Source of the DNA: a virus
Virus genome (UHGV): UHGV-0123060
DNA length: 14,403 nt
Reading direction: 5' to 3' (one strand)
Positions 1,310 through 14,312 of this stretch are shown here, piece after piece (position 1 is the first letter of the stretch; every line of letters starts with the position of its first letter). A model generated the notes under the pieces. It saw only the letters and a list, made by a program, of their open reading frames with translations. It was not told the DNA's origin and ran no database searches. Both the position numbers and the translations under genes were made by a program.

Positions 1310-1541
1310 TGGCCGCTCTCCATTTATCTACCCGGGCGTCGTTATCCTCGCGCATGTCGAGGTAGTCATTGAGAAGCGCGATACGGCAGAGGTCTACCGC
1401 ACCGCTGTTAAGGTCTTTCTGGTCAATATGGAAGGCAAGCGCCGGACGAAGAATAAAGTCTTCACCGCCCGGCAGGCTGTTGAAGGTTATTCCGCTGGCG
1501 GGGTGCTCGTCTCGCTGGTAGGGAGTCCTTGCAAAAAATTT
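1299..1541 (-). CDS. Tail assembly chaperone -1 frameshift extension (GT-type fusion product; with upstream part of 1487..1912)
   Basis: The -1 frame relative to the 141-aa chaperone ORF is open from the slippery run for about 80 codons (KFFARTPYQRDEHPASGITFNSLPGGEDFILRPALAFHIDQKDLNSGAVDLCRIALLNDYLDMREDNDARVDKWRAANER) and stops at 1299-1301, just past the tape-measure ATG. This is the conserved G/GT arrangement. Confidence 0.7.
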   Translation of the reverse strand, partial: KFFARTPYQRDEHPASGITFNSLPGGEDFILRPALAFHIDQKDLNSGAVDLCRIALLNDYLDMREDNDARVDKWRAANER

Positions 1542-1912
1542 CCCAGCGAGTCGGCGACCACCCGCGCCACCAGTTGCAGCATGGTAAGCAGGTCGATATC
1601 GTCAAACGCCATTTCGCCATGCTGGCAGACCGGCACCCAGCCTTTCATGTGCTCGCGTGAAACAACGGAAAGACAGGGGAACAGGATAGCGTCCACGTCG
1701 CCATCACTCAGATCGGACACAGCATTGGCAATCTTTGGCAGGATGGTAGCCATCGCGCCTTCGGTGTCTTTGCTGCTGATCTTCTCCTGAACGCTCCGGA
1801 AGTCCGAAACCATCCCGGCCAGAACCGGCAACAGCTTGCGGGACACCTTCAGCTGTTCGAAAACGCTGAGCTTTGCGGTGCGATATTTCACGCCTTTAAT
1901 TTCGAATTCCAT
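1487..1912 (-). CDS. Tail assembly chaperone (G-like, zero-frame product)
   Basis: 141-aa ORF between tail tube and tape measure; ATG at 1912 four nt after the tube stop; contains the slippery site near its 3' end with an open -1 frame downstream. Confidence 0.75.
   Translation of the reverse strand: MEFEIKGVKYRTAKLSVFEQLKVSRKLLPVLAGMVSDFRSVQEKISSKDTEGAMATILPKIANAVSDLSDGDVDAILFPCLSVVSREHMKGWVPVCQHGEMAFDDIDLLTMLQLVARVVADSLGNFLQGLPTSETSTPPAE
1532..1538 (-). other. Candidate -1 programmed ribosomal frameshift slippery heptamer T_TTT_TTG
   Basis: Minus-strand sequence ctg gga aat ttt ttg caa in the chaperone zero frame (LGNFLQ). The heptamer T TTT TTG is in the correct phase and matches, from memory, the slippery sequence used for P2 E/E+E'. 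An overlapping A AAT TTT is an alternative. Confidence 0.6.
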
Positions 1913-2366: not shown

Positions 2367-3527
2367 TTAGCGAACCACGTTGATCTGCACATCGGCATAA
2401 TGAACTGCGCCAGCCAGCTTACAGGCCACCTGGATTAACGGTGCTTTGCGCGCTTCGCGGTCGGCCTGCGCCTGTTGCACCAGCGGCTGCGCATAGACGT
2501 AATAGCCTTTGGTCAGCGTATCGCCGGAATTCAGCTGTCCGATAGGGCCACCATTCCACACGCCAGCAGCTACCAGACCGTTCGTGACGGACTGATCCAT
2601 GGACTGTTCAACGTTGGAAAGCAGACGGGTCACACCGGCATCAGTCTGCGGAATTTTGGTGGTGCTGGTGTAAAGCAGGTTATAGAGGTTGGTCTGAACG
2701 TAGTTCTGCAACCAGTCGAGCCCGTGGCGCTCGTCGAAGAAGTCACCGTTCGCCATGACACCCTGTTGCAGGATCGCCGTGTCGTTGGCGTAGTACACGA
2801 ACACGTTCGCATTCTTCGCATCCACCGCAGCCGCCTGGCCTACCGTCAACGTTTCGTAGGTTACGCTTGGTTCCTGTTTGAACTTCAGGGTAATGGTGGT
2901 ATTGCTGCCGTTGAAATTGACAGTAAACGCACGACCGAAAGCAGAAACCGCTGCGTAAGGGCTGCTGGTGGAATACTGAATAAAGGTACGGGCATACTTG
3001 CCAGCCTTTAATTTTGACGCAACATCGGTCGTCGAAGTCGTGCTGATAATCTCGGCGTCGGCAGAGGTCACACCAAAGATACGGCTAAGGCTGGACGCTT
3101 CAATAAGTTTGGCGACCTCAATCACGTCATCAGCATCAAGCACATCGCCACCAGCGACAACATCATCAGCGACAACCAGCCCATACCAGTTGGTATACTG
3201 CAGGCAGGCATTAACAGCTTGCACGATGGTTTCCACGCTTCCACCTTCGGAAGAGGTCAGCGTCTTCGCCCAGCGGCCAACATAAACCTGCGTCGGCTTC
3301 GGCGACTGGCTGAAGAAAACCTGCGCCGCTTCATATTCCGGGCTGTCGACTCCGAAGTCCTCGCCAATGTCCTCAACGGACGCATAAAGGCGAACGCGCT
3401 CCTGCACCGGAATGACAGTGGAAGAACCGAGGATCAGCAGTGCGCCGAAGTTACGACCAGTAGCCGCTTTCGGCGAGATGATCACATCAACGTTTACAAC
3501 GTTGGATACAGGTAAGCCCTGCGTCAT
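2367..3527 (-). CDS. Tail sheath protein, putative
   Basis: 386-aa ORF directly upstream of the tube candidate; order sheath-tube-chaperone(frameshift)-tape measure is the P2/Mu-like contractile-tail arrangement. Family assignment is from size and synteny only. Confidence 0.6.
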
Positions 3528-3530
3528 AGT

Positions 3531-4094
3531 TTATTCTCCAAAAAAGGTGACTGGCGCTTCCACCAGCGATTTGATGCCGTACTCGCGCACGACCTTCCGG
3601 CGCAGGCGCACCGTCATGTCGTAGCGGCGAACCCATTGCTGGTTGATAAGCTCGGGGAAAGGGGTCAGACCGGTATAGTCGCCCAGGGATAAACCGAGCG
3701 CGTTCAGCTCAGCATTATTTTGCGGGACAGATATGCCATCGCGAAAACGGGACGCATAAGACATACCCGCCGGGCCATAGAACGACGCCATGCACTCGAA
3801 CGTTTCATGCCGCCAGAGCTGAGCGCCCTCGTCGGTCTGCCTGGTGAATGCAGGACTGTTATCAATGAGCAACCCGGTAACGCCAAACGCGCACCAGTTC
3901 GTTTCAACGGGTGGCAGTGGCGGCTGATTTTTCTGCCAGCGCGGACGAACCATTCCAGACGGCAAGCCGGAAACATTGCGCATCCACTGGCTTAGCAGCC
4001 TGTCGAGCGCTTCGTCATAATCCGGATCGCCGCTGGTGGGTGTCAGCCAGCCGCGCTCTGTGCTGGTGTTATTGCTCAACGGGAGTACCCCCAT
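3531..4094 (-). CDS. Hypothetical structural protein (tail completion/neck region), start ambiguous
   Basis: ORF track 3531..4136 begins at a GTG; first in-frame ATG is at 4094. Stop is 4 nt before the sheath ATG. Position between head and tail genes. Confidence 0.5.
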   Translation of the reverse strand: MGVLPLSNNTSTERGWLTPTSGDPDYDEALDRLLSQWMRNVSGLPSGMVRPRWQKNQPPLPPVETNWCAFGVTGLLIDNSPAFTRQTDEGAQLWRHETFECMASFYGPAGMSYASRFRDGISVPQNNAELNALGLSLGDYTGLTPFPELINQQWVRRYDMTVRLRRKVVREYGIKSLVEAPVTFFGE

Positions 4095-4458
4095 CAAACG
4101 GCAACAGTTCGCAATGCGCCTGGACGAAGCCAGCACCGTAAGCGGTATACGGGTCGACGAACGTCACACGATAATCACGGTTCTGATACGTCACGATATC
4201 GGCATCACGGCCAGTCTGCCCCTGCGTAAGTCGTTCAGTCGTCACGATAAGAATCGCGCCGCTGATAACCTGCCCGGCCTGCATGCGGCGGTTTTCCAGA
4301 GAGCGGTCAACGGTAACAACCCCGGCAAACTGCGTTTTAACTTCGCTGTCGCTGCCGATCCCGTCCTCGTCCACCGTTTGCGCGCGACGCGTTACCCACA
4401 GGTTGAAGTCGCAAAAATCGGGGTCAAAAAGCACGTCTGTTACATCAAGATTCGGCAT
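4069..4458 (-). CDS. Hypothetical head-tail joining/neck protein
   Basis: 129-aa ORF, ATG at 4458, inside the run of small genes between capsid and sheath. No motif recognised. Confidence 0.5.
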   Translation of the reverse strand: MPNLDVTDVLFDPDFCDFNLWVTRRAQTVDEDGIGSDSEVKTQFAGVVTVDRSLENRRMQAGQVISGAILIVTTERLTQGQTGRDADIVTYQNRDYRVTFVDPYTAYGAGFVQAHCELLPFDGGTPVEQ

Positions 4459-4999: not shown

Positions 5000-5415
5000 A
5001 GCTGGCGACCGCCCGCACCGAACATCGTGATCAGCTGATAAAATTCAGCGCCATATCGGGTGTTATTCCAGAAGCCTGCGTCAGGGTTTAGCGTCGAGCT
5101 GGTGTCATAGCTGACGCTTACCTTGTCAACGGACTTAGAGGACTGAACACCATTGGTTGAACCGCCAGGGCCGCCAACCAGCATCGCCCGACTATCTGCC
5201 GCCCAAAGCGTCATGTAGTGCGCAACGAACAACTCGGCAAAATATGGAAACAACTTTTTGCCGGTGACGTTTTCGCTCAGCAGCACATCGGCCAGATTCA
5301 GACGAAACTGGATTTGCGCTTCGGGATATTTGGCAGGGTCAGCAAACTGCGGGAAGTTGCGGCGAAAATCACTTACTGTTGGCAGGCTTTGATTCTTTGG
5401 CATCTTTCGCCCCAT
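4996..5415 (-). CDS. Hypothetical head-tail connector/adaptor-like protein, start ambiguous
   Basis: ORF track 4996..5439 starts at TTG; in-frame ATGs at 5415 and 5403 (the latter preceded by GGGG). Overlaps the 3' end of the upstream coiled-coil gene. Confidence 0.5.
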
Positions 5416-5758
5416 TACCGCCAGTCTGGGCGGCAGCAATCTGCGCTTGCAGGCTGTCGTTCTGCTCTTGCAGCTTGAGCAGCGCTTCTTTCAGATCGGC
5501 AATCAGCTGATCTTTATCGACAATCTGCTTATCCTTGTCGGCAATCTGCGCTTGCAGGCCGTCGATAATGGGTTGCAAATCATCGGTGTCGCTAATCACG
5601 CTTTCGGAAAGCTCAGAATGCGCCTGGGTGAACCAGTGCGACGCGACCTCTTCCGGTACGTTATGCCGTCCCCGGCCAAACTCCTGTTTAGACTGATCGC
5701 CGAGCGTCAGCGTGAACGGGGTGTGAACATGGATGGTAACCAGCTTTTCTTTCGCCAT
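5369..5758 (-). CDS. Hypothetical coiled-coil protein (head module, after major capsid gene)
   Basis: 129-aa ORF with SD (GAAGGAAA) before the ATG at 5758. C-terminal half is a repetitive predicted coiled coil ([45 protein letters not shown]) encoded by DNA direct repeats. Confidence 0.6.
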
Positions 5759-5773
5759 TTTAAGTTTCCTTCT

Positions 5774-5789
5774 GGCCCCTTTCGGGGCC
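5774..5789 (-). promoter_or_regulatory. GC-rich stem-loop (GGCCCC-GAAA-GGGGCC on minus strand) between major capsid gene and next gene; no U-tract
   Basis: Perfect 6-bp G/C stem with a GNRA-type tetraloop, 11 nt after the capsid-gene stop and 15 nt before the next ATG. Not followed by a T run on either strand, so not a canonical intrinsic terminator. Confidence 0.5.
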
Positions 5790-5799
5790 GTTCTGGTTA

Positions 5800-6741
5800 T
5801 CAGATACCGTCCACGTAGGACAGGGTTTCTTTGTACACTGGCTCAACCGCACCGAGCTTGCCGTAGTAAGTCACAATCTGGTACAGACCACGATACTGGA
5901 CAGGAACGCTCTGCAACGGTACCAGCGGATAGCGCACGTATTTCTTGTCGTTGGTGTAGGCGACCATACGGTCTTTACCGCCAACTCCGCGCCCTTTCAG
6001 CCATTTGACCGCTTTGATTTCCAGCGGAACGCCGTTCTGGTGGAAAGCGATAGTGTTCACGGCCAGATAGGTCAGCAGTGACTGGTTACCCGCTTCGGAA
6101 ACCTTACGGCTCGCCAGCAGTGAATACTGCTCTGGCGGAATGCGCAGATCAGAAGGCACGACGGAATAACCGGATGCTGCCCAGGCATTCGACAGAATGC
6201 TGTTCACGCTATCGAGGATCTCGTCGTTGGTGGAGTTCGCCCAGGTCTTCGGCGCGTTGTTCAGCGTCACACCGACAAGGTTTGCCAGCCCTTTCAGGCC
6301 GAGCGCATCATCGCCGATGTAAACCTGCTCGTCGTTGTCCATCTGCCATTTGAGCTGCATCCCGTCGTACTTCTGGGTATCAATCGGGCGACCTACCTGC
6401 TGAGCTGCTGCCAGCTCTACAACGGTCCAGCCCAGTTCCATGCCCCAGAGGTTCAGAGGATTGCCGTCTTTGCCGATATCAACGTTCACGCCAGCAATAG
6501 CGGTGGAGTCTTTGCCTACCCAGTTTTTACCGTTAGGATTTGCGCCAGTACCCGCAGCGCCAAAGCTGGTGTTAGTCCAGCTGGAAATGTCATCTGCGAT
6601 AGAAACGTCTTCACGCAGTTGAATGTCGCGGGTCCAGGTGTAACCCACCAGCGGCAGGTTCAGCGTCTGGTCGATTCGCTCCAGCTCCCCGATAAGAAAG
6701 GCACCAGAGCTATCAACGGTTGCCTGATCAAAAGTAATCAT
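5800..6741 (-). CDS. Major capsid protein, putative
   Basis: 313-aa ORF, ATG at 6741 with AGGAAC upstream. Largest head-module ORF after the scaffold-like gene; the strong downstream stem-loop would fit a highly expressed capsid gene. Called by position and size only. Confidence 0.55.
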   Translation of the reverse strand: MITFDQATVDSSGAFLIGELERIDQTLNLPLVGYTWTRDIQLREDVSIADDISSWTNTSFGAAGTGANPNGKNWVGKDSTAIAGVNVDIGKDGNPLNLWGMELGWTVVELAAAQQVGRPIDTQKYDGMQLKWQMDNDEQVYIGDDALGLKGLANLVGVTLNNAPKTWANSTNDEILDSVNSILSNAWAASGYSVVPSDLRIPPEQYSLLASRKVSEAGNQSLLTYLAVNTIAFHQNGVPLEIKAVKWLKGRGVGGKDRMVAYTNDKKYVRYPLVPLQSVPVQYRGLYQIVTYYGKLGAVEPVYKETLSYVDGI

Positions 6742-6752
6742 TCGTCTGTTCC

Positions 6753-7256
6753 TTAAATCTTCCAGGAGATTTCTGCATTGCCGTTAGCGTCACCGGCCCC
6801 TGTGAATTCGGCGTTGGTCAGCGCCACGTTTTTGCCACTGACGGACGTGGACATGAAGCCGCCCAGCGGCACGTCAATGGTTGAGTCGAGCGAAACAACC
6901 ACGTAGACAGGCGCGCCTTTTTTGATAGTGCTGGCATCGAAGCCAGATCCGAGGTTAACGGTCATGTAGCCACGCTTCATGGCGTCGCCCGGGAAGTTCT
7001 TATCCGTCCCCACCTGGCGAACCATGTCTGGTTGCGATGTGGTCGGATACGGACGAACGTAGATACCCTTCACCTTGTCGGCGGTGTCACCGTCCGCCAG
7101 CGGCACGAAAAAGCCGTCAGCGTCGTATTTGCCAGCCAGACCATAGGCAGCGAAGGCGTTAGCGGATTTAAGGATCACCGGTTCGACGGTTAAGTCCTGC
7201 GGGCGAGAGATAGCCCCGGCAATGCCAACAGGCATCCGGTACAGATATGCAGTCAT
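6753..7256 (-). CDS. Hypothetical head protein (decoration or accessory capsid protein candidate)
   Basis: 167-aa ORF between the scaffold-like gene and capsid gene; Gly/Ala/Val-rich beta-type composition. Function from position only. Confidence 0.45.
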   Translation of the reverse strand: MTAYLYRMPVGIAGAISRPQDLTVEPVILKSANAFAAYGLAGKYDADGFFVPLADGDTADKVKGIYVRPYPTTSQPDMVRQVGTDKNFPGDAMKRGYMTVNLGSGFDASTIKKGAPVYVVVSLDSTIDVPLGGFMSTSVSGKNVALTNAEFTGAGDANGNAEISWKI

Positions 7257-7260
7257 TGGA

Positions 7261-8493
7261 TTATCCTTTGCGGTTAGACCAGAAGTCGGCGTTTTGTTTG
7301 TTCAGGGAAGCGATGCTGGTCATGCCCATATTTGGACGTTGTGCATCGCCCGTGGTGCTGCGGGTGTTTCGCCCTTTGGCAATCTCTGACACGGCGTTAA
7401 ACGCCATATCTACCGATTGCTTGGGCAATTTGCGGATATCCGCATCACCGACAACCTGGCGAACCAGTTTTTTGTCAGCGGCGGACAGCACATCACGTTT
7501 GAACGCGGTCGGTTTCACCTTACGGCTCAGATCGATACCCGGAACGATAACTTCGGCACGATAAGCAGCGTCACCGGTAATCGTGGTTTCCTCTTCGTCG
7601 TCCTCACCGTCGCAGGTAGGGTCTTTGTTATCTTTGCCGTCAGGCTTATCGTCGTTATCGCACGTCGCATTTCCTTCCAGCTTAGCCAGCAGGGCTTTGA
7701 GCAAGGTTTTGATATCGTCCTCGCCGTCGCCGGTTGGCTCTCCGCCCATTTCCGGCTTTTTGTCCGGCAATGGTTGCTGCGGTGAAAGGTTAATGTTGAG
7801 GTTAACGCCGCTCGGCAGATCCCCTTCGTCACCCGTTACCGCCGCTGGCGCAGAGTCCAGCAGTTCGTTCATGGTGTCAGCGTCACCCGTTTTGATGGCC
7901 GTGCGCATGCGGGTCCACCAGCTTTTCTTTTGATTTGCCATTGTGTCTCTGTCTCCAATTGCACAACGATTTCCGGCTCTGCCTTTAGGGACAAGAGCCA
8001 CATGGTTTCCGGTAATATCAACCTGCTCAGCCTTACCCGGCTCAGTCTGCTTATATTCCGCGTCATAGCCACACGACACTTCGCGCAGGCCATCTTCGAT
8101 CAGCTGAATGGCGTTTTCGTCTTTGACGATAAGGTCAGCCAGCATCAAATCAGACTGATCACCAGTCCCGCGCCGAACGTTCTGAAGATGCCCGACCGCA
8201 AGCTCTTTCCAGTTCTCGGGGTTGACCAGCCGCACATTCCCGTTTTCATCTTCAGGATGCAGGATCGTGATGCTCATCCCTTCGAATGAGGCGAGCGTGG
8301 CCGGATGGAATACCTGCTCAGGAGAACGCGTGACGACTATTTCACCGAACTTATCGGGTTTCAGTTTTGGCAGGTCATCAGCACCATAGAGCTGCTTACC
8401 CGTTCGACCTATCGGCACGTCTTTGCACAGCAGCGAGCCGTCAGCCAGCTGATAGCGGGTTTCCCCCAGCCGGGTGTAGAAGAAATATTTCAT
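7261..8493 (-). CDS. Putative scaffolding/head maturation protein with acidic low-complexity central region
   Basis: 410-aa ORF, ATG at 8493. N-terminal ~190 aa globular; central D/E/K/G-rich segment with two TCD motifs (NATCDNDDKPDGKDNKDPTCDGEDDEEE); sits between the Mu-F-like gene and the capsid gene. Confidence 0.5.
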   Translation of the reverse strand: MKYFFYTRLGETRYQLADGSLLCKDVPIGRTGKQLYGADDLPKLKPDKFGEIVVTRSPEQVFHPATLASFEGMSITILHPEDENGNVRLVNPENWKELAVGHLQNVRRGTGDQSDLMLADLIVKDENAIQLIEDGLREVSCGYDAEYKQTEPGKAEQVDITGNHVALVPKGRAGNRCAIGDRDTMANQKKSWWTRMRTAIKTGDADTMNELLDSAPAAVTGDEGDLPSGVNLNINLSPQQPLPDKKPEMGGEPTGDGEDDIKTLLKALLAKLEGNATCDNDDKPDGKDNKDPTCDGEDDEEETTITGDAAYRAEVIVPGIDLSRKVKPTAFKRDVLSAADKKLVRQVVGDADIRKLPKQSVDMAFNAVSEIAKGRNTRSTTGDAQRPNMGMTSIASLNKQNADFWSNRKG

Positions 8494-8704: not shown

Positions 8705-9478
8705 TCAGGCGAGATAGGGATGAGGTGTCGGGAATACGATTTCTTTGTAGCAACGGCAGTTAGGTAACTCCCCGGCGTGACCGGTCATGCCGTCAAGCGT
8801 TGGAGGTCGGCCCCATTCGACAAACTTCCCTTCCATCTCTCGATGAGAATGCCGGACGTCGCCATCTTCGGCTGTACGCCAGATATAGCCATTCGAGCCG
8901 ATTGACAGCGCACGCGCCTGATCCAGTGCACCGGTTGCGCGCCCAAGCTCAGTCCGGGCGATAAGGTTCGCTCGTGAGCGTGACACGTCACCGGAAGCAG
9001 CTATCTCTTTCGCGAATGGCTCAGCGCGGCCACCAGTCACAACAGCCTCGATGGCTTTGTTCTGAATGTCATACACGCGATCGGCAGCCTCAAGAGGCAG
9101 CGATTTGATGTACTTAATTTGCTCGGCGACGATGGATTTCATCACCTGGCCTACCGGGGCGCGGTCAACCATGTTACGCAGCTCTGCGCTGATGTTCCGG
9201 CTGTGCTGACGCCACTGCTTTTCATTCTGGCGCGCTATGTCTGCGGTGAAGTTCTCAGCAACCTTCGTCGCCCAGGGGGTGATGATTTCGCTGTAGCGCT
9301 CCAGCGCATCCATGATTTCGGTGACGCTATCGTTTGAACCATCGTAGCGCCCATTTACGATATCCCCGACCGCCCGCGCTATCTGCCGTAGGCTCGTTCG
9401 ATATCGGATCTCCGCCTGGCGACTCTGGCGGTTTGTCGCCAAGTTCGCCGATGCCTGGCGGCGCTTCGTCTTCGGCAT
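8705..9478 (-). CDS. Head morphogenesis protein, phage Mu F-like / SPP1 gp7 family
   Basis: C-terminal region carries the family motifs as I recall them (WRTAEDGDVRHSHREMEGK ... LPNCRCY). Located directly after the portal gene. First ATG at 9478 lies 152 nt inside the portal ORF, so the true start may be downstream. Confidence 0.8.
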   Translation of the reverse strand: MPKTKRRQASANLATNRQSRQAEIRYRTSLRQIARAVGDIVNGRYDGSNDSVTEIMDALERYSEIITPWATKVAENFTADIARQNEKQWRQHSRNISAELRNMVDRAPVGQVMKSIVAEQIKYIKSLPLEAADRVYDIQNKAIEAVVTGGRAEPFAKEIAASGDVSRSRANLIARTELGRATGALDQARALSIGSNGYIWRTAEDGDVRHSHREMEGKFVEWGRPPTLDGMTGHAGELPNCRCYKEIVFPTPHPYLA

Positions 9479-10796
9479 TCTCGATATCCTCGTCGGTAAT
9501 GGATGCTCCGATACCAGTGACGTCAGAGTTTTCGCGCAGGTCGGTCATTGCCGCCTTACGCGTCATCAATCCGTCGCCCAGCGCGGTGCTGATCGCGGTG
9601 GTGGTGTTTACGGCCACCGTTGAGCGGTCAACGTCAGACATTTGCCATAGCGGGTTAAACTCAAACGTGAAATCGTCCGGCAGCGGCTTGCCGAGTTCAG
9701 AGCGGTGCATAATGTCCAGTATCCGGCGCATCGGCAGCCGTAAGCGTCGCTCCTGCAATGAACTCACCCGGTCGTAATAGTTGGCGAGGTCAGCATCACC
9801 AGTAGAGAAGCCTTTCGGGGATTGACCGAACAGGCGTACCAGCGGGATGCCGACGGCACCGCTGATCTGCTCAGCGAACTGCGAAAGAATGTCATCCAGA
9901 CCGCTGAAGCTGTACTGGTGGGTTTCGAAGGTATCCTTGGCATCCATTAGCGTCATGCCTTCATTGCTCTGAAACTGGCGAATCAGATCAATGTTTTTCA
10001 GCAGCGCCTCGAATGCCGGGCCTCCCAGCGCAATAAGCTCACGAAGTTTTTCCACCTTGTAGGTCCGCAGATGCGCTTTGTAGACCAGCTGCGCCGCGCC
10101 GACAGTGGCGCTGTCGAACGCAGTAAGCCGATCCCAGATACGCTCTACAACCGACATTCCCCATTCGTTTTCGGTCATCTTCTGCTGGAATGGCAGCGTG
10201 ACGCCATCGAAGCGAATCAGGCGGCTGTGATGGATGCGCCAAGACGGGATGCCCGTAGCAGTGGTCACCACGTCGTAAAACTCAGGTTTGCCGAGATCCG
10301 GCCCCATCTCTTTAATGCGGCGGGTCAGCACCGGATTAATCATCCAGCGGTCGAGCGGGAGAATTCCCTTAAACTTGCCTTCTCCAATGGTTTCGAGCCG
10401 CAGCGGGGTCATTGGTGCCTGCCCCTCAATCATGATGAAGCCAACCGCGCCGCCGTAGAGACGCGACCATTTCAGCACGTCGTTCAGCGCATCCCAGATC
10501 TGCAACTCATCCAGCTGCGCTTCCAGGGTGCCACGGTCTTTGGCGTCAATCTCCGAAGTGATGCGAATGCCTTTCCGGGTCATATCGTCCGGGATAGCGT
10601 CGACCGCTTCGCCGATAACCCACGATCCGCGATATGACCATTCCACCAGCATGCGGTTGCGGCTGGTGAAGTTCGCCCGGTAGGTCGATGCTGAGTGCTG
10701 GTTAGGCGTCTGCATCCCCACGCGGGCGACAAAGTTCTCATAGCCATCAGCGGTGGCCTGCGCCGTTCGCTGAGAGGCTTGCTTGTTTCGTGCCAT
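9327..10796 (-). CDS. Portal protein, putative
   Basis: 489-aa ORF whose ATG (10796-10794) overlaps the terminase stop (TGATG). Size and position between large terminase and Mu-F-like gene; acidic Pro/Gly-rich disordered C-terminal tail. Confidence 0.7.
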   Translation of the reverse strand: MARNKQASQRTAQATADGYENFVARVGMQTPNQHSASTYRANFTSRNRMLVEWSYRGSWVIGEAVDAIPDDMTRKGIRITSEIDAKDRGTLEAQLDELQIWDALNDVLKWSRLYGGAVGFIMIEGQAPMTPLRLETIGEGKFKGILPLDRWMINPVLTRRIKEMGPDLGKPEFYDVVTTATGIPSWRIHHSRLIRFDGVTLPFQQKMTENEWGMSVVERIWDRLTAFDSATVGAAQLVYKAHLRTYKVEKLRELIALGGPAFEALLKNIDLIRQFQSNEGMTLMDAKDTFETHQYSFSGLDDILSQFAEQISGAVGIPLVRLFGQSPKGFSTGDADLANYYDRVSSLQERRLRLPMRRILDIMHRSELGKPLPDDFTFEFNPLWQMSDVDRSTVAVNTTTAISTALGDGLMTRKAAMTDLRENSDVTGIGASITDEDIENAEDEAPPGIGELGDKPPESPGGDPISNEPTADSAGGRGYRKWALRWFKR

Positions 10797-12418
10797 CAGG
10801 CCTGTCTCCCTAGCAGCTCCCAGATGTTCAGGGCTGAATTCATTGGCGCGTAGCTGATCATCACCGAGTCGGCGAGGTTCGGCGACTTGGTGCCGTCAGG
10901 CTGTTTATCAACAACGATTTTCCCCACGCCGTTAATGGAGTAGGTCGGCTGCGACAGCTCGATGATGAGTTTGTCTTTGTTCGCCATAGTGCCACTGATT
11001 GAGATGATTTCGTCCGGGTTGTAAGCCATCTTTTCAACCACGGCACGATAGGTGTTCTGGAAAAGCTTGCGTAACCGCCACCAGCTCTGGGCCTTGGCGT
11101 TAGCGAAAAAGTCCTTATTCAGGCGGGCGGCCTGTCCGTTGTCGCCGCGCACCGCTTCATCGTCCGGATCAAACACCGCGCCGCTACCGCGAAACGGTGT
11201 GGCGAGTATTGACGGTCGGCGCGCAGCGTTGCGCAGTTCGTTGATGGCGCGCGCATCGCCGCGAACGCCAGCGCCCAGGCCGTCCTCGTCGAAGCGAAAC
11301 TCTTCGAGGTTGTCCTGTTCGCAAAAGCCGAAGACCTTCTCAACAGATTGGTAAATGTCGCTGCCCACGCCGGACCATTCCCGCACGTTCTCCAGGAGGA
11401 AACCGTGACGGGTCGAAAAGGCATTTTTGTCCCGGCCTTCGTCGGCGACGTCCATCGCGCCCAGTCGCTTGCCCGTTGGCTGAATACCAAGTTTGATATG
11501 CGCGTCGACGGCAGCCTGTACCCAGTCGGACGGGATCAGGACGCCTTCCGCAGATGCGCTGTAGTTCAGGTCAAGTTCCTGCGCCACCACCACCGGATTG
11601 TCGATTTTCTCGCACTCCCTGCGATACCACTCTTCATCCTTGCGCGGGTCATCTCGCCAGTGGAACGTGAATACTGGTATCTTTCCGCCGTGGCGCTTCT
11701 GCGCGAACGGGTTCGCCATGCCATTAACCGAGCTCAGGTCAATACGGCAACGGGTGGTTTGCGACAGCGCCGCGTCAATCAGCAGAGGACGCTGGAGGAA
11801 TGCAGCCTCATCCACCAGGTAGAGGGTGGTACGGTCACCACGACCGATATTGTCGCCAGCCTCGCCTTTGATGACCGCGCCAGTATCGGGAAACTCAACG
11901 CGCATGTATGGCGCGTGCTTCTTCTCGTCCCACGAACCGCGAAACTCGACGGGCAGCGTTTCCACGAACTTGCGCGCCTTCCAGAACAGCGCCTTCGGGT
12001 CTCCGGTGCTGTCGACGTATTCCTCTTTACGGGAGCCGAAGCCGATGACCATTTCTTTGTTGAAGAGGCAGAGCGAACAGGCCAGCCCGATCGCCGTCCA
12101 GCTGAGCCCCATTTCGCGGCTCTTTTCGGTGATGCCGTTCTCCAGTCGTTCGCGCCGCTCCATGATCCAGTGAATCCACTCTTCCTGTTTCGGGAACAGC
12201 AGAAAAGGGATGGTGACCGGCAGGCCATAATCGATGTTACGCGGGTCAGTAGTCATCCCCCAGTCGATGATGAACTGTGCCGGGTTGGTGCGGTAAAACT
12301 GCTTTAGCGCTGGCAGCATTTCAGGGTTCTGGCGAATGCGCTGTAAGCGCTCCATCCGCCATTCAAAAACCATCTGGTAATCAGGGTTTCTGAAATCGAA
12401 TTCAAACGGAAGAGGCAT
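10796..12418 (-). CDS. Terminase large subunit
   Basis: About 541 aa; P-loop-like [12 protein letters not shown] and Walker-B-like [11 protein letters not shown] in the N-terminal ATPase part, acidic nuclease-type C-terminal half. ORF track start 12424 is a GTG overlapping the upstream stop; ATG at 12418 preceded by GGGTGA is the more likely start. Confidence 0.85.
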
Positions 12419-12420
12419 GA

Positions 12421-12894
12421 TCACCCCATCATCTTGCGGTAAATCTCTGCGGCCTGATCTGCGGTGAGGTTGGTCGTCTCGGTCTTGATCGGGCCGCCAT
12501 CCTTGCCAGTGCTCTCAACCTTCAGCTTATTGGTGTATGCATCGCCAACCTCTTTCGCGGCCTGCTCAATGAGCTGCGCCGTCAGGGAGAAGTTTTTCAT
12601 CCCCTCGGTTTTGGTTGCCATACGGTCAAGCACGCGGAGGCGATAGGATTTGTTCGCAATCGGAATGTCGCTGGTTTCGGTCAGGAATCGGTCGCGCGTC
12701 GCGTGGAACATCTCGATCCATTTTTTGGCGAGCGTCTTACCGCTGGCCTTCGTGGGGTCGTGAGATTCAGCCTGCTGGCGGGTGATCTTGATCCCGAATT
12801 CTTTTTGGACAGCCTCGACCACCTGCGATGGCGTGTCATAGCACGCAAGCGACTGAATGATGAAGGCTTTCACATCAGGTTTTAATGCAGCCAT
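12421..12894 (-). CDS. Terminase small subunit, putative
   Basis: 157-aa ORF immediately upstream of and coupled to the large terminase; SD GGATGGTGA before the ATG at 12894. Called by position and size. Confidence 0.55.
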
Positions 12895-12925: not shown

Positions 12926-13546
12926 TTAAGCCAGTCGCAGCATGCACGTCCCGCACGCTCTGGCAATATCGAGATGAGCAACCTCCGCTGGCTGATTCGC
13001 CGCATCAATCATTTCCTGCACGTCCCGGCTTGCACCGTAACGGCGAACCACGCCCACAAACTCTTCCACGTCATGACCGCGCAGCTTCAGCTTTGGCTGC
13101 CCTTCCTGCGTGAACTTCGGCGCGCCAAATTCATCTGTCGCCTGGCAGATGTGATAAAGCTCGTGCTCTATCAGCGCGCAGAATTCCAGATCGGAACATT
13201 GCGAGCAGTAATCGGCGGCCAGCGTGATGATGAACTGCGGCACCCTGCCGAACCACTCATACATCTGCTGCTCCATCCGCGCTTTCTGCCAGCCTCCAGC
13301 CCGCATTGCCACTTCTTCCGCCTGCCCCAGCACGGAACGCCCTTTCTTCTCGAAAGCGTTCGACGCCCAGAGAAAGCACAGATCCGCTTCAAGCAAATGC
13401 TGGTGATCAGGGTTGTAGAGGTCACCCTCATCGCTCAGGATGTGCTGATTCAGCCACTCGCCAACGTCATTAGCGGGCATAATGCTGATGTACGGCTTCG
13501 GGTCAGGTGGCATCGTAAAATGCGCTGGTGGGTGTGGTCTGTTCAT
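12926..13546 (-). CDS. Hypothetical Cys/His-rich protein with HExxH motif (candidate zinc metalloprotein/metallopeptidase)
   Basis: 206-aa ORF, ATG at 13546. Contains YCSQCSDLEFCALIEHELYHICQ (CxxC, C, HExxH, C) plus a C-terminal ACGTC; Pro-rich N-terminus. Sits between the lysis cassette and terminase genes. Confidence 0.6.
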   Translation of the reverse strand: MNRPHPPAHFTMPPDPKPYISIMPANDVGEWLNQHILSDEGDLYNPDHQHLLEADLCFLWASNAFEKKGRSVLGQAEEVAMRAGGWQKARMEQQMYEWFGRVPQFIITLAADYCSQCSDLEFCALIEHELYHICQATDEFGAPKFTQEGQPKLKLRGHDVEEFVGVVRRYGASRDVQEMIDAANQPAEVAHLDIARACGTCMLRLA

Positions 13547-13622
13547 GAATAATTCCAGTGCTCCATTATCAAGCCCACCAGCAGATGGGCTTTGTAATGG
13601 AAAGCCGTTGTGAAAGTGGCTC

Positions 13623-13745: not shown

Positions 13746-13794
13746 GCTGATGAATACCGTGTTGGCGCGCTGTAGCTCGGTGAAATTCGGGCAT

Positions 13795-13818
13795 AAAAAA
13801 GCCCGACCGAAGTCAGGC
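13795..13818 (-). terminator. Intrinsic (rho-independent) terminator after Rz/Rz1
   Basis: Minus-strand RNA GCCUGAC-UUCG-GUCGGGC (7-bp stem including one G-U pair, UUCG tetraloop) followed directly by UUUUUU, starting 20 nt after the Rz stop. Confidence 0.7.
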
Positions 13819-13838
13819 TCTGTTATTTGGGTGACGAA

Positions 13839-14312
13839 TCACTTAAGACACTGCTCTTTGATGTAGTCCTGCATGCCGCGAATCATTTTGTCAGCGGTTG
13901 CGATTCCGTCCCGGTGATCGAAATAATTCCGTCGAGCGTCTGGAGTAAGTTCGGGGGCTCCTGCATCATCCACGCCGGTGGAGGAGGTGGCTTTTGGCAC
14001 TCCAGGGCAGGTTGCAGCGATGCGCAGCCGTTTAGCGCCAGAATCGACATCACGACGCAAATCGTTAATGGTCTTTTTAGCATCAGCCAGTTCTCCGGTG
14101 TATTTGGCATCCAGTGCAGCGACATCACGCTGGCGGGTCTGCATGTCTTTAATGGTGGCGGTCGCCAGGAGGAGTTTCTCAGTGGCCTTATCGCGCTGGT
14201 CTCTGTAAGTGATGGCGTTGTCGCGGTAGTGGTTCACGAAGAAAGCCAGTGCGCCGATTAACGCCAGCACCAGCAACTGCAGCCAGTAACGCTTAACCAG
14301 TGCGCTAATCAT
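13839..14312 (-). CDS. Rz: Rz inner-membrane spanin (i-spanin)
   Basis: 157 aa; N-terminal TM segment ([15 protein letters not shown]) then [10 protein letters not shown] ... [19 protein letters not shown], matching the lambda Rz core from memory; coiled-coil periplasmic domain. ATG at 14312 overlaps the upstream stop (ATGA). Confidence 0.9.
13883..14083 (-). CDS. Rz1: Rz1 outer-membrane spanin (o-spanin) lipoprotein, embedded in Rz in the +1 frame
   Basis: Entirely inside the Rz ORF in another frame. Signal peptide [19 protein letters not shown] followed by Cys (lipobox-like LNGC), then [16 protein letters not shown] and DGIIS, matching lambda Rz1 as I recall it. Start placed at the Met preceding the signal peptide; track ORF extends to 14128. 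Confidence 0.85.

Follow-up and report, generated by a model that had tools for sequence, protein, structure and literature searches.

Gene Content of the Window

The window, that is, the whole stretch of 14,403 nucleotides of virus genome UHGV-0123060 that was analysed, comes from a lambdoid myovirus prophage of the SEN34/Brunovirus-like type. Every long open reading frame (ORF) lies on the - strand, and the window's end falls within the lysis genes. Read in the direction of transcription, the locus holds the following genes and features.

13839..14312, - strand: Rz spanin gene, end of the lysis cassette
13793..13822, - strand: canonical intrinsic terminator after the Rz spanin gene, inside the late gene block; AGCCUGAC-UUCG-GUCGGGCU followed by UUUUUU
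12926..13546, - strand: 206-aa ORF at the place of the annotated small terminase gene of SEN34
10796..12424, - strand: large terminase
9327..10796, - strand: portal
8705..9478, - strand: Mu-F-like head morphogenesis protein
7261..8493, - strand: DUF2213 scaffold/protease-like gene
6753..7256, - strand: cement/minor capsid gene
5800..6741, - strand: major capsid protein (MCP), 313 aa; Pfam PF09950 (Major_capside, E=5e-83); 97% aa identity to the "major head protein" of SEN34
5790..5799, - strand: linker from the capsid stop to the hairpin, 10 nt, UAACCAGAAC
5789..5784, - strand: 5' arm of the hairpin, GGCCCC (from sequence and fold, as are the loop and the 3' arm)
5783..5780, - strand: GNRA loop of the hairpin, GAAA
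5779..5774, - strand: 3' arm of the hairpin, GGGGCC
5767..5771, - strand: Shine-Dalgarno (SD) sequence AAGGA of the downstream gene; AG (2 nt) separates it from the hairpin, and ATG follows after 8 nt
5369..5758, - strand: downstream gene of 129 aa, with which the region past the procapsid module opens; phrog_2619, listed in RefSeq as "STY1053 family phage-associated protein"
Beyond the 129-aa gene, - strand: DUF4054, neck/tail-completion, sheath, tube, chaperone, and tape-measure genes

The genes around the hairpin are co-oriented and separated by 4-41 nt, with procapsid genes upstream and neck genes downstream. Gaps of 4-11 nt separate the scaffold-like, cement, and capsid genes, and the region of the DUF2213 and cement/minor capsid genes (6753..8493) has Pfam matches to PF09979, PF23982, and PF22758. 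The Pfam coiled-coil or scaffold-like matches of the 129-aa gene product are weak and all below the cut-off.

A Compact Hairpin Follows the Major Capsid Gene

On the - strand, the junction reads GGT ATC TGA TAA CCAGAAC GGCCCC GAAA GGGGCC AG AAGGA AACTTAAA ATG. Tandem stops end the capsid gene, TGA at 5802..5800 and an in-frame TAA at 5799..5797. The sense RNA of the - strand then contains the hairpin GGCCCC-GAAA-GGGGCC (5789..5774), whose stem of 6 bp is perfect and all G/C, with a calculated folding energy of -13.3 kcal/mol. The hairpin is present in both the minimum free energy (MFE) and the centroid fold of an 81-nt context. Given the footprint of a ribosome, the 10-nt linker should leave the stem folded while translation terminates at the capsid stop.

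A preliminary description of this DNA had reported a perfect GGCCCC/GGGGCC stem with a GAAA loop, directly downstream of the major capsid gene and without a poly-U tail, and had named the folding energy as a check. The sequence and the fold bear out the stem and loop, the energy and both folds agree with a stable structure, and the hairpin starts 10 nt from the stop of a gene whose PF09950 match leaves its capsid identity clear. The 10 nt 3' of the stem, AGAAGGAAAC, contain no U, and a consensus terminator scan returned no - strand match at the capsid hairpin. The same description had the hairpin in a 41-nt spacer between the capsid stop and the next SD. The length is right, but the 41 nt (5759-5799) extend past the SD as far as the next start codon, so that the SD is part of the spacer.

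Probable Q Antitermination of the Late Operon

In lambda and P22, the lysis and structural genes form one late operon, transcribed by a Q-modified, terminator-resistant polymerase. By analogy, late transcription of the window is probably Q-antiterminated too, with the Q gene inferred from relatives. A Q-like antiterminator gene lies directly upstream of the holin-endolysin-Rz and structural genes in both SEN34 (phrog_127) and Omnitron (phrog_753), and both phages have a lambdoid nin region (NinB, NinG, or RusA). The Omnitron leader carries a terminator-like hairpin and a tRNA-Asn, an arrangement much like that of phage L (PMC8022706). Since these relatives have Q genes and the window's own gene block contains a canonical terminator, read-through of internal terminators is to be expected anyway.

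Position of the Hairpin Relative to Chance

That a hairpin of this kind occurs somewhere in 14.4 kb can be a matter of chance. The window has a GC content of 55.6%, and shuffling it with dinucleotides preserved yielded 2.8 +/- 2.1 perfect all-GC hairpins with stems of 6 bp or more; 90% of the shuffles had one or more. The fold of the 81-nt context is likewise unremarkable (z = -1.74). Because of these two results, the existence of the hairpin alone is taken to lie within chance. Among 30-nt windows of both strands, the hairpin ranks about 13th in stability.

The position of the hairpin, together with its conservation, does exceed chance. No second perfect all-GC hairpin with 6 bp or more exists in the window, and this one sits inside the 41-nt spacer, for which the expectation is about 2.8 x 41/14403 = 0.008. 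This spacer is also the longest in the head-to-tail gene block, whose other gaps are 3-11 nt or overlaps. When the sense strand was scanned over all 14.4 kb with 20-nt folds, the hairpin had the top stability, and a scan with 24-nt folds found one equal site only, at 13570-13593, which is also intergenic. The prominence of the hairpin is confined to compact folds of up to 24 nt.

Conservation of the Hairpin in Related Phages

The region is 97% identical in Citrobacter phage Omnitron, 90% in Salmonella phage SEN34 (Brunovirus), 83% in E. coli vB_EcoM-689R2-like phages, and about 74% in Klebsiella prophages such as GZ7. To these can be added a wider set of 187 loci from IMG/VR and GTDB genomes, whose capsid proteins are 73-100% identical (aa) and which yielded 77 distinct junctions. 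Together with Acinetobacter phage BUCTT20 and Burkholderia phage BgManors32, the set comprises 79 distinct junctions.

An equivalent hairpin after the capsid gene of related phages, another check named in the preliminary description, was clearly found: 76 of the 79 distinct junctions have a GC hairpin between the capsid stop and the next SD. The three junctions with no such hairpin are those of a Rosenbergiella locus (L105), BUCTT20, and BgManors32. In 26 of 35 representative loci of 3.9 kb, the hairpin is the single top 24-nt fold of the sense strand. Its distance from the stop is 5-12 nt in nearly all relatives, and an SD of AAGGA, GAGGA, or AGGAG is kept at the same place. Two loci (L092 and L094) have a different downstream gene, and even there the hairpin adjoins the capsid stop. 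A weakened stem occurs in only one of the 187 sequences (L059).

Within the window's own clade, which is 96-99% identical (84 junctions, 10 of them distinct), 1 of 12 stem sites is variable versus 8 of 29 sites elsewhere in the spacer (p=0.24). At this range, stem conservation is statistically indistinguishable from that of the rest of the spacer, and variation is too scarce to inform. A search of the whole window against Rfam 15 at gathering thresholds gave no match, and at the hairpin site, with E values up to 10, Rfam 15 returned only chance-level matches (E >=0.37).

Compensatory Changes and the GNRA Loop

Between clades, the stem sequence changes and the pairing stays. The clade-specific stems, which are always paired, are GGCCCC/GGGGCC, AUGGCCCC/GGGGCCAU, GCGGCCC/GGGCCGC (with one G.U variant), GUGGCCC/GGGCCAC, AGCCCC/GGGGCU, GCCCCG/CGGGGC, and GGCCCCC/GGGGGCC. 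The compensatory pair types are visible directly in the raw junction sequences.

Covariation was scored on a loop-anchored alignment of 24 distinct tetraloop hairpins. All six core pairs are 100% paired in it, a value inflated by the anchoring of the rows on predicted loops. One pair position is variously GC, CG, AU, or UA, and another is CG or GC. The covariation score of 0.303 compares with 0.069 +/- 0.021 after shuffling; none of 500 shuffles reached 0.303, and the signal collapses in slid registers. A MAFFT alignment of all 39 tetraloop hairpins had some rows off by one column, which made it unusable for pair counting, and the 24-row subset was used in its place.

The loop varies among GAAA, GCAA, GUAA, GGAA, and GCGA in the clades that bear a GNRA loop. 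By hand count, at least eight loop changes in these clades keep GNRA and one breaks it (GAAG, in L117). If one in three random single changes would keep GNRA, a rough binomial p is ~0.001, an estimate and not a phylogenetic test. Because the loop changes mostly keep GNRA, the pattern points to selection on the sense-strand RNA and not on a DNA palindrome or on the antisense strand.

A Continuum Between Terminators and Stabilisers

Intrinsic terminators combine a GC-rich hairpin with a U-tract of about five or more U in the 8 nt right 3' of the stem. The capsid hairpin has the first of these features, a GC-rich 6-bp stem 10 nt past the capsid stop, and lacks the second, with no U 3' of the stem. 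Scores were obtained with a terminator discriminant of the d'Aubenton-Carafa type, a formula attributed to d'Aubenton-Carafa et al. (1990). With this formula, the capsid hairpin scores about -36 versus about +22 for the terminator at 13793-13822. The absent U-tract is thus not a habit of this genome, since the same window has a canonical terminator with U6 after Rz. The consensus scan missed the terminator at 13793..13822, whose A-rich 5' flank probably pairs with part of the U run.

Some sister lineages carry U-tracts at the homologous site, and several others, like that of the window, have none. Prophages of the Raoultella/Trabulsiella type have AGCCCC-UUCACA-GGGGCU and then UUUUUUC, and their discriminants are +8 to +27; one variant of this type (L123) has the tail UCUUUCU and a discriminant of -10.7. 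In another locus (L099), the hairpin is GCCCCG-GUAA-CGGGGC and the tail UUUUCUCU. A search of the phage collection for an isolate of the U-tract clade, meant for a check of its Q gene, found none above 86% capsid identity. The distant relatives JD001, Vibrio phage 24, and RHEph04 (23-28% capsid identity) have textbook terminators with 8-11-bp stems after the capsid gene, and promoter scans past these terminators gave one weak match only.

Across lineages, then, the hairpin is constant, and the U-tract comes and goes. Since a Q-modified polymerase would read through with or without a U-tract, only the hairpin would be visibly constrained. Judging from the sister lineages with U6 and the textbook terminators of distant relatives at the same site, the window's hairpin belongs to a terminator/stabiliser continuum, and it probably descends from a terminator or is interchangeable with one.

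For the window itself, a role in RNA stability is favoured over termination by the missing U-tract, by the score of about -36, and by the closest relatives, whose late operon is Q-antiterminated. The preliminary description had leaned towards a transcript-stabilising or processing element over a terminator. The stabilising part is favoured on the same three grounds, a verdict of "not a terminator" is too sharp in light of the sister lineages with U6 and the distant relatives' terminators, and a processing role in the sense of RNase III is unsupported because the 6-bp stem is too short. RNase III sites such as the T7 R sites and lambda sib need about 20 bp or more, and neither MFE nor centroid folds of 81-nt or 180-nt contexts contain a longer helix here.

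A Protective 3' Hairpin as the Proposed Role

A protective 3' hairpin, of the kind seen in differential operon decay, at the boundary between high-copy procapsid and low-copy neck genes has, in our judgment, about an even chance of being the correct reading. The anatomy is that of differential operon decay, with a stable U-less hairpin inside an operon, 3' of the more-needed gene. The structure is also conserved over sequence, as seen in the 76 of 79 junctions, the compensatory pairs, and the top fold in 26 of 35 loci.

In the proposed mechanism, the hairpin would be an intercistronic RNA element of the long late mRNA. It would mark the boundary between two groups of genes. The scaffold-like, cement, and major capsid proteins are required at hundreds of copies, and the proteins for head completion and the neck at about a dozen. 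RNA polymerase would pass the hairpin owing to the missing U-tract and the probable Q antitermination. An endonuclease, presumably RNase E, would then cleave within the less densely translated RNA downstream, and PNPase and RNase II would digest 3'-to-5' back to the GC/GNRA hairpin and stall there. The leftover scaffold-cement-capsid mRNA could still be translated and would outlast the downstream segment, so that one hairpin might give 3' protection to the DUF2213, cement, and capsid genes together. In evolutionary terms, terminator and hairpin would be interchangeable at the site, with sister lineages retaining the U-tract and the window's lineage the hairpin alone. The structure, its place, its conservation with covariation, the missing U-tract, and the Q genes of the closest relatives are shown; that the polymerase reads through, that the RNA is cut downstream, that exonucleases stall, and that the amounts of capsid mRNA and protein change as a result are inferred steps of this scheme. 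A literature search for transcript data on SEN34/Brunovirus or on STY1051-1054 found none.

There are precedents for such an element, a direct one among them in enterobacteria. Of 34 E. coli operons whose upstream gene is stabilised, 26 have a U-less hairpin at the stable 3' end, credited to exonuclease resistance and not to termination (Dar & Sorek 2018, PMC5927463). Xu et al. showed for the Clostridium cip-cel operon, a case of selective RNA processing and stabilisation, that subunit stoichiometry is set by intergenic stem-loops (PMC4423207). Among engineered terminators, those that best protect upstream mRNA have energies of about -22 to -28 kcal/mol (PMC11696848). Protection by the capsid hairpin may be modest, since its stem has only 6 bp and -13.3 kcal/mol.

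Other features of the locus also speak against a protective role. Among the genes downstream are those for the tail sheath and tube, high-copy proteins whose message would be lost too. The SD is just 2 nt from the hairpin, and a part in downstream translation is possible.

Comparison With Known Systems

The window's hairpin resembles the elements of differential operon decay in malE-malF, in the E. coli operons of Dar & Sorek (PMC5927463), and in cip-cel (PMC4423207) in that a GC-rich, U-less hairpin lies inside an operon, 3' of the most-needed genes, and is conserved among relatives, and in that subunit stoichiometry would be set from a single transcript. It differs from them in being intergenic, very compact (16 nt, 6 bp), and part of a phage late operon. 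The E. coli cases of Dar & Sorek, unlike it, are mostly inside the downstream coding sequence (PMC5927463), and the malE-malF element is a longer REP structure.

Other phages have terminators in the same place of the gene order, right after the coat or capsid gene and within the structural transcription unit or at its end. These include the procapsid-module terminator of phage L and P22-like phages (PMC8022706) and T-phi of T7 and its counterpart in LUZ100 (PMC10134795). The presumed purpose, more capsid than downstream message, is the same, and the lambdoid procapsid-module terminators also lie in a Q-antiterminated operon. The role of the P22-like procapsid-end terminator is explicitly described as unknown (PMC8022706). 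The elements of phage L, T7, and LUZ100 have U-tracts, and termination at them is predicted or shown, whereas the window's hairpin is U-less. The capsid genes of P22 and T7 also belong to folds and gene sets unrelated to the window's DUF2184 family, and T-phi acts on T7 RNA polymerase.

Closer counterparts occur in Klebsiella phage JD001, Vibrio phage 24, Rhizobium phage RHEph04, and the Raoultella/Trabulsiella-type prophages, where a GC stem with a stable tetraloop (UUCG or GNRA) follows a homologous capsid gene at the same site. Their stems of 8-11 bp and/or tails of U5-U7 set them apart, as do the spacers of 65-120 nt in the distant phages. In the window, by comparison with the JD001-type terminators, the stem is just 6 bp long, U is absent, and the SD shares the 41-nt spacer with the hairpin.

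Lambda boxB, like the capsid hairpin, is a short GC stem with a GNRA-type loop in lambdoid phage mRNA. However, boxB has a 5-bp stem and a pentaloop (GAAAA/GAAGA), is paired with boxA, and belongs to early operons, whereas the capsid hairpin has a tetraloop, no boxA, a place in the late operon, and a stem sequence that is free to vary. A lambda-type nut site was therefore rejected, given the tetraloop, the lack of a CGCUCUUA-like boxA in the flanks, and the location between late structural genes. A REP/BIME repeat was rejected as well, because the hairpin is the sole all-GC perfect hairpin in 14.4 kb and its stem sequences differ between related phages.

Alternative Roles of the Hairpin

E. 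coli RNA polymerase releases transcripts inefficiently at a hairpin that lacks a U-rich hybrid. This established property weighs on the idea that the hairpin is a weak or conditional terminator or attenuator, which would stop part of the polymerases, notably those that are not Q-modified and arise from spurious transcription of the lysogen. The capsid hairpin, with its U-free 10 nt past the stem and its score of about -36, would be inefficient at release, and the phage's own terminator, after Rz, uses a U6 tract. A restart promoter would not fit in the 41-nt spacer, and all downstream genes are essential. The idea draws on the Raoultella/Trabulsiella-type and L099 hairpins, with their U5-U7 tracts and positive terminator scores, and on JD001, Vibrio phage 24, and RHEph04, in which a textbook terminator directly follows the capsid gene. 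The same roles have been proposed for the terminator that closes the procapsid module in the late operon of phage L (PMC8022706), and post-capsid terminators are present in T7 and LUZ100 (PMC10134795). We consider partial termination unlikely on balance, and it is just as unlikely that an attenuator lowers downstream transcription or keeps the prophage's tail genes silent.

The closeness of the hairpin to the SD, 1-7 nt in most clades, raises the question of whether it serves the downstream gene. Upstream cleavage could leave it as a protective hairpin at a 5' end, in the papA/ompA manner, or it could be an insulator or stand-by platform that fixes the context of the SD and uncouples translation of the downstream gene from that of the heavily translated capsid gene. 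A mechanism of the papBA type is documented (PMC5927463). In one locus (L162), the hairpin adjoins the SD though it lies about 30 nt from the capsid stop, and in several clades a short outer helix can pair upstream CC/UCC with the GG(A) of the SD. No consistent insulation was seen in silico, where the SD-AUG region has an unpaired probability of 0.57 when the hairpin is intact versus 0.49-0.65 when the hairpin is disrupted or deleted, a result that tells neither for nor against a role in translation. In L092 and L094, the downstream gene is a different one and lies 25-30 nt from the hairpin, which is beside the capsid stop. An RN|WUU motif for RNase E is absent from the 20 nt that precede the hairpin, and the downstream genes are the low-copy ones, whose stabilisation is less obviously needed. 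On balance, a function for the downstream gene is improbable. From the SD to the AUG, the window does contain a partial RNase E match, AAAC|UUAA; the clade's commonest variant there is ACUGAAA, and the match is thus not conserved.

The hairpin might also be a neutral relic or junction scar, a decaying former terminator at a mosaic module boundary that has no function in this lineage. A variable cassette follows the capsid gene, its product having one of three unrelated N-termini or the gene being absent, which marks the capsid junction as a recombination boundary. The within-clade conservation is not significant (p=0.24), and L105, BUCTT20, and BgManors32 lack any hairpin. A relic should nevertheless accumulate stem-breaking changes, and the clade stems instead stay perfectly paired through compensation. 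Loop changes respect GNRA, the weakened stem of L059 is one in 187, and in 26 of 35 loci no other local fold is as stable, all of which makes a functionless scar quite improbable.

It is very doubtful that the hairpin is an operator for a phage RNA-binding protein, of the coat-protein, RegA, or boxB-like type, that represses or times translation of the neck genes. The loop family is conserved, the SD is 2 nt away, and two variants, L059 (GAAAA-type) and L162 (GUAAA), have GNRA-like pentaloops as in lambda boxB. Against this, the stem and loop vary freely (GAAA, GCAA, GUAA, GGAA, CUGGC, AUAU, and UCAC), and such free variation of stem sequence and loop identity disfavours sequence-specific recognition. 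There is no boxA-like CGCUCUUA motif nearby, the site is in the late and not the early operon, and RNA-binding domains were not detected in the neighbouring genes. The candidate ligands would be surplus capsid or scaffold-type protein or the STY1053-family product, and it is no less doubtful that their binding ties the translation of neck and tail genes to how head assembly stands.

Finally, a + strand (antisense) terminator that shields the capsid message from convergent transcripts is hardly credible, for although the consensus scan lists + strand TGGCCCCTTTCGGGGCCG then TTCTGGTTAT as terminator-like, that tail is just the complement of the tandem stops and linker, the + strand tails of other clades contain no more than 2-3 T in 8, neither genes nor convincing promoters were seen downstream on the + strand, and the GNRA constraint is on the - strand.

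Uses of the Capsid Junction

The protective 3' hairpin proposed here would be a familiar kind of operon-tuning element; the locus is a new, well-conserved case and involves no new mechanism. As a testable cis element, it bears on how one late transcript of more than 20 kb in a temperate phage gives hundreds of capsid subunits and about a dozen neck subunits. The related phages form a natural allelic series at one homologous site, with a hairpin plus U6, a hairpin plus partial U, a hairpin alone, or none, and close relatives use Q antitermination. If these variants were swapped, the stopping of the polymerase and the protection of the 3' end, both of them tasks of a terminator hairpin, could be told apart, and the hairpin itself is a compact 16-nt part for tuning the stoichiometry of operons.

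The hairpin-bearing junction is common, being found in 192 of 5426 complete E. coli genomes. Annotators should take some care with it, as a start codon may be called inside the hairpin, which is the case in SEN34.

The gene at the capsid hairpin junction

Directly 3' of the capsid hairpin (the GGCCCC-GAAA-GGGGCC stem-loop between the major capsid gene stop and the next Shine-Dalgarno sequence) lies a variable cassette (window 5369-5758, minus strand; loci L003, L004, L092, L094, L095 and L105 among related phages and prophages). The product MAKEKLV... belongs to the STY1053 family; E. coli phages carry MAKNNAV... in its place, and the Klebsiella and Raoultella clades carry MKKIYVL.... Prophages of Pantoea, Izhakiella and Rosenbergiella are without the cassette gene, and a DUF4054-like gene comes next instead. 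A boundary of mosaic recombination thus falls at the capsid hairpin.

In Salmonella phage SEN34 (L001), the post-capsid gene is annotated from an ATG at 6469-6471 (window counterpart, 5790-5792), which arises through a C-to-T substitution (AAC GGCCCC to A ATG GCCCC). With this start, the annotated CDS spans the hairpin and the gap is 8 nt. This ATG is missing from the window and from most relatives, and the start that is conserved, together with its Shine-Dalgarno sequence, lies further downstream at ATGGCGAAAGAAAAG. The SEN34 annotation has probably placed the start wrongly.

MFE folds from several clades (junctions of L164, L165, L169 and L171; window 5766-5796, minus strand) allow a short outer helix around the capsid hairpin, in which upstream UCC (or CC) pairs with GGA (or GG) of the Shine-Dalgarno sequence, as in UCC-GGCCCC...GGGGCC-AACA-GGA. 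Such a predicted helix could partly mask the downstream gene's Shine-Dalgarno sequence.

Hairpins in the late gene block

Two strong hairpins are found near the lysis and terminase end:

13793-13822, minus strand: canonical intrinsic terminator, AGCCUGAC-UUCG-GUCGGGCU, then U6
13570-13593, minus strand: second strong hairpin, AAGCCCAUC-UGCU-GGUGGGCUU

Together, these hairpins suggest that late transcription requires antitermination, and the first should be internal to the presumed single late operon. It lies directly 3' of the Rz spanin gene and is absent from the consensus terminator scan's list for the window. The second is about 25 nt 5' of the start of a 206-aa ORF (12926..13546), whose position matches the small terminase gene as annotated in SEN34.

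The tail gene region contains two further hairpins:

1376-1405, minus strand: 12-bp hairpin, -21.1 kcal/mol, GCGGUGCGGUAG-ACCU-CUGCCGUAUCGC
3550-3567, minus strand: hairpin GCUGGUG-GAAG-CGCCAGU, then CACCUUUUUU

The former, the most stable local fold in the entire window, could be a frameshift stimulator for a G/GT-type chaperone or a further intercistronic stabiliser. It sits within the 178-nt gap from a tail-chaperone-like ORF (1487..1912) to the tape-measure start (1309). The latter, classed as terminator-like by the scan, falls within the final codons of the preceding ORF (3531..4136), just ahead of the start codon (3527) of the tail sheath gene.

The Omnitron late leader

Citrobacter phage Omnitron carries a tRNA gene in what is presumed to be its late-operon leader:

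L196 (Omnitron) 3425-3499, plus strand: tRNA-Asn (GTT) gene

This gene is flanked by a Q-like antiterminator gene and the holin, with a terminator-like hairpin ahead of it, AAGCCCUUGCAGAAAUGCAGGGGCUUUUU. The same arrangement is found in phage L, a P22-like phage (PMC8022706).
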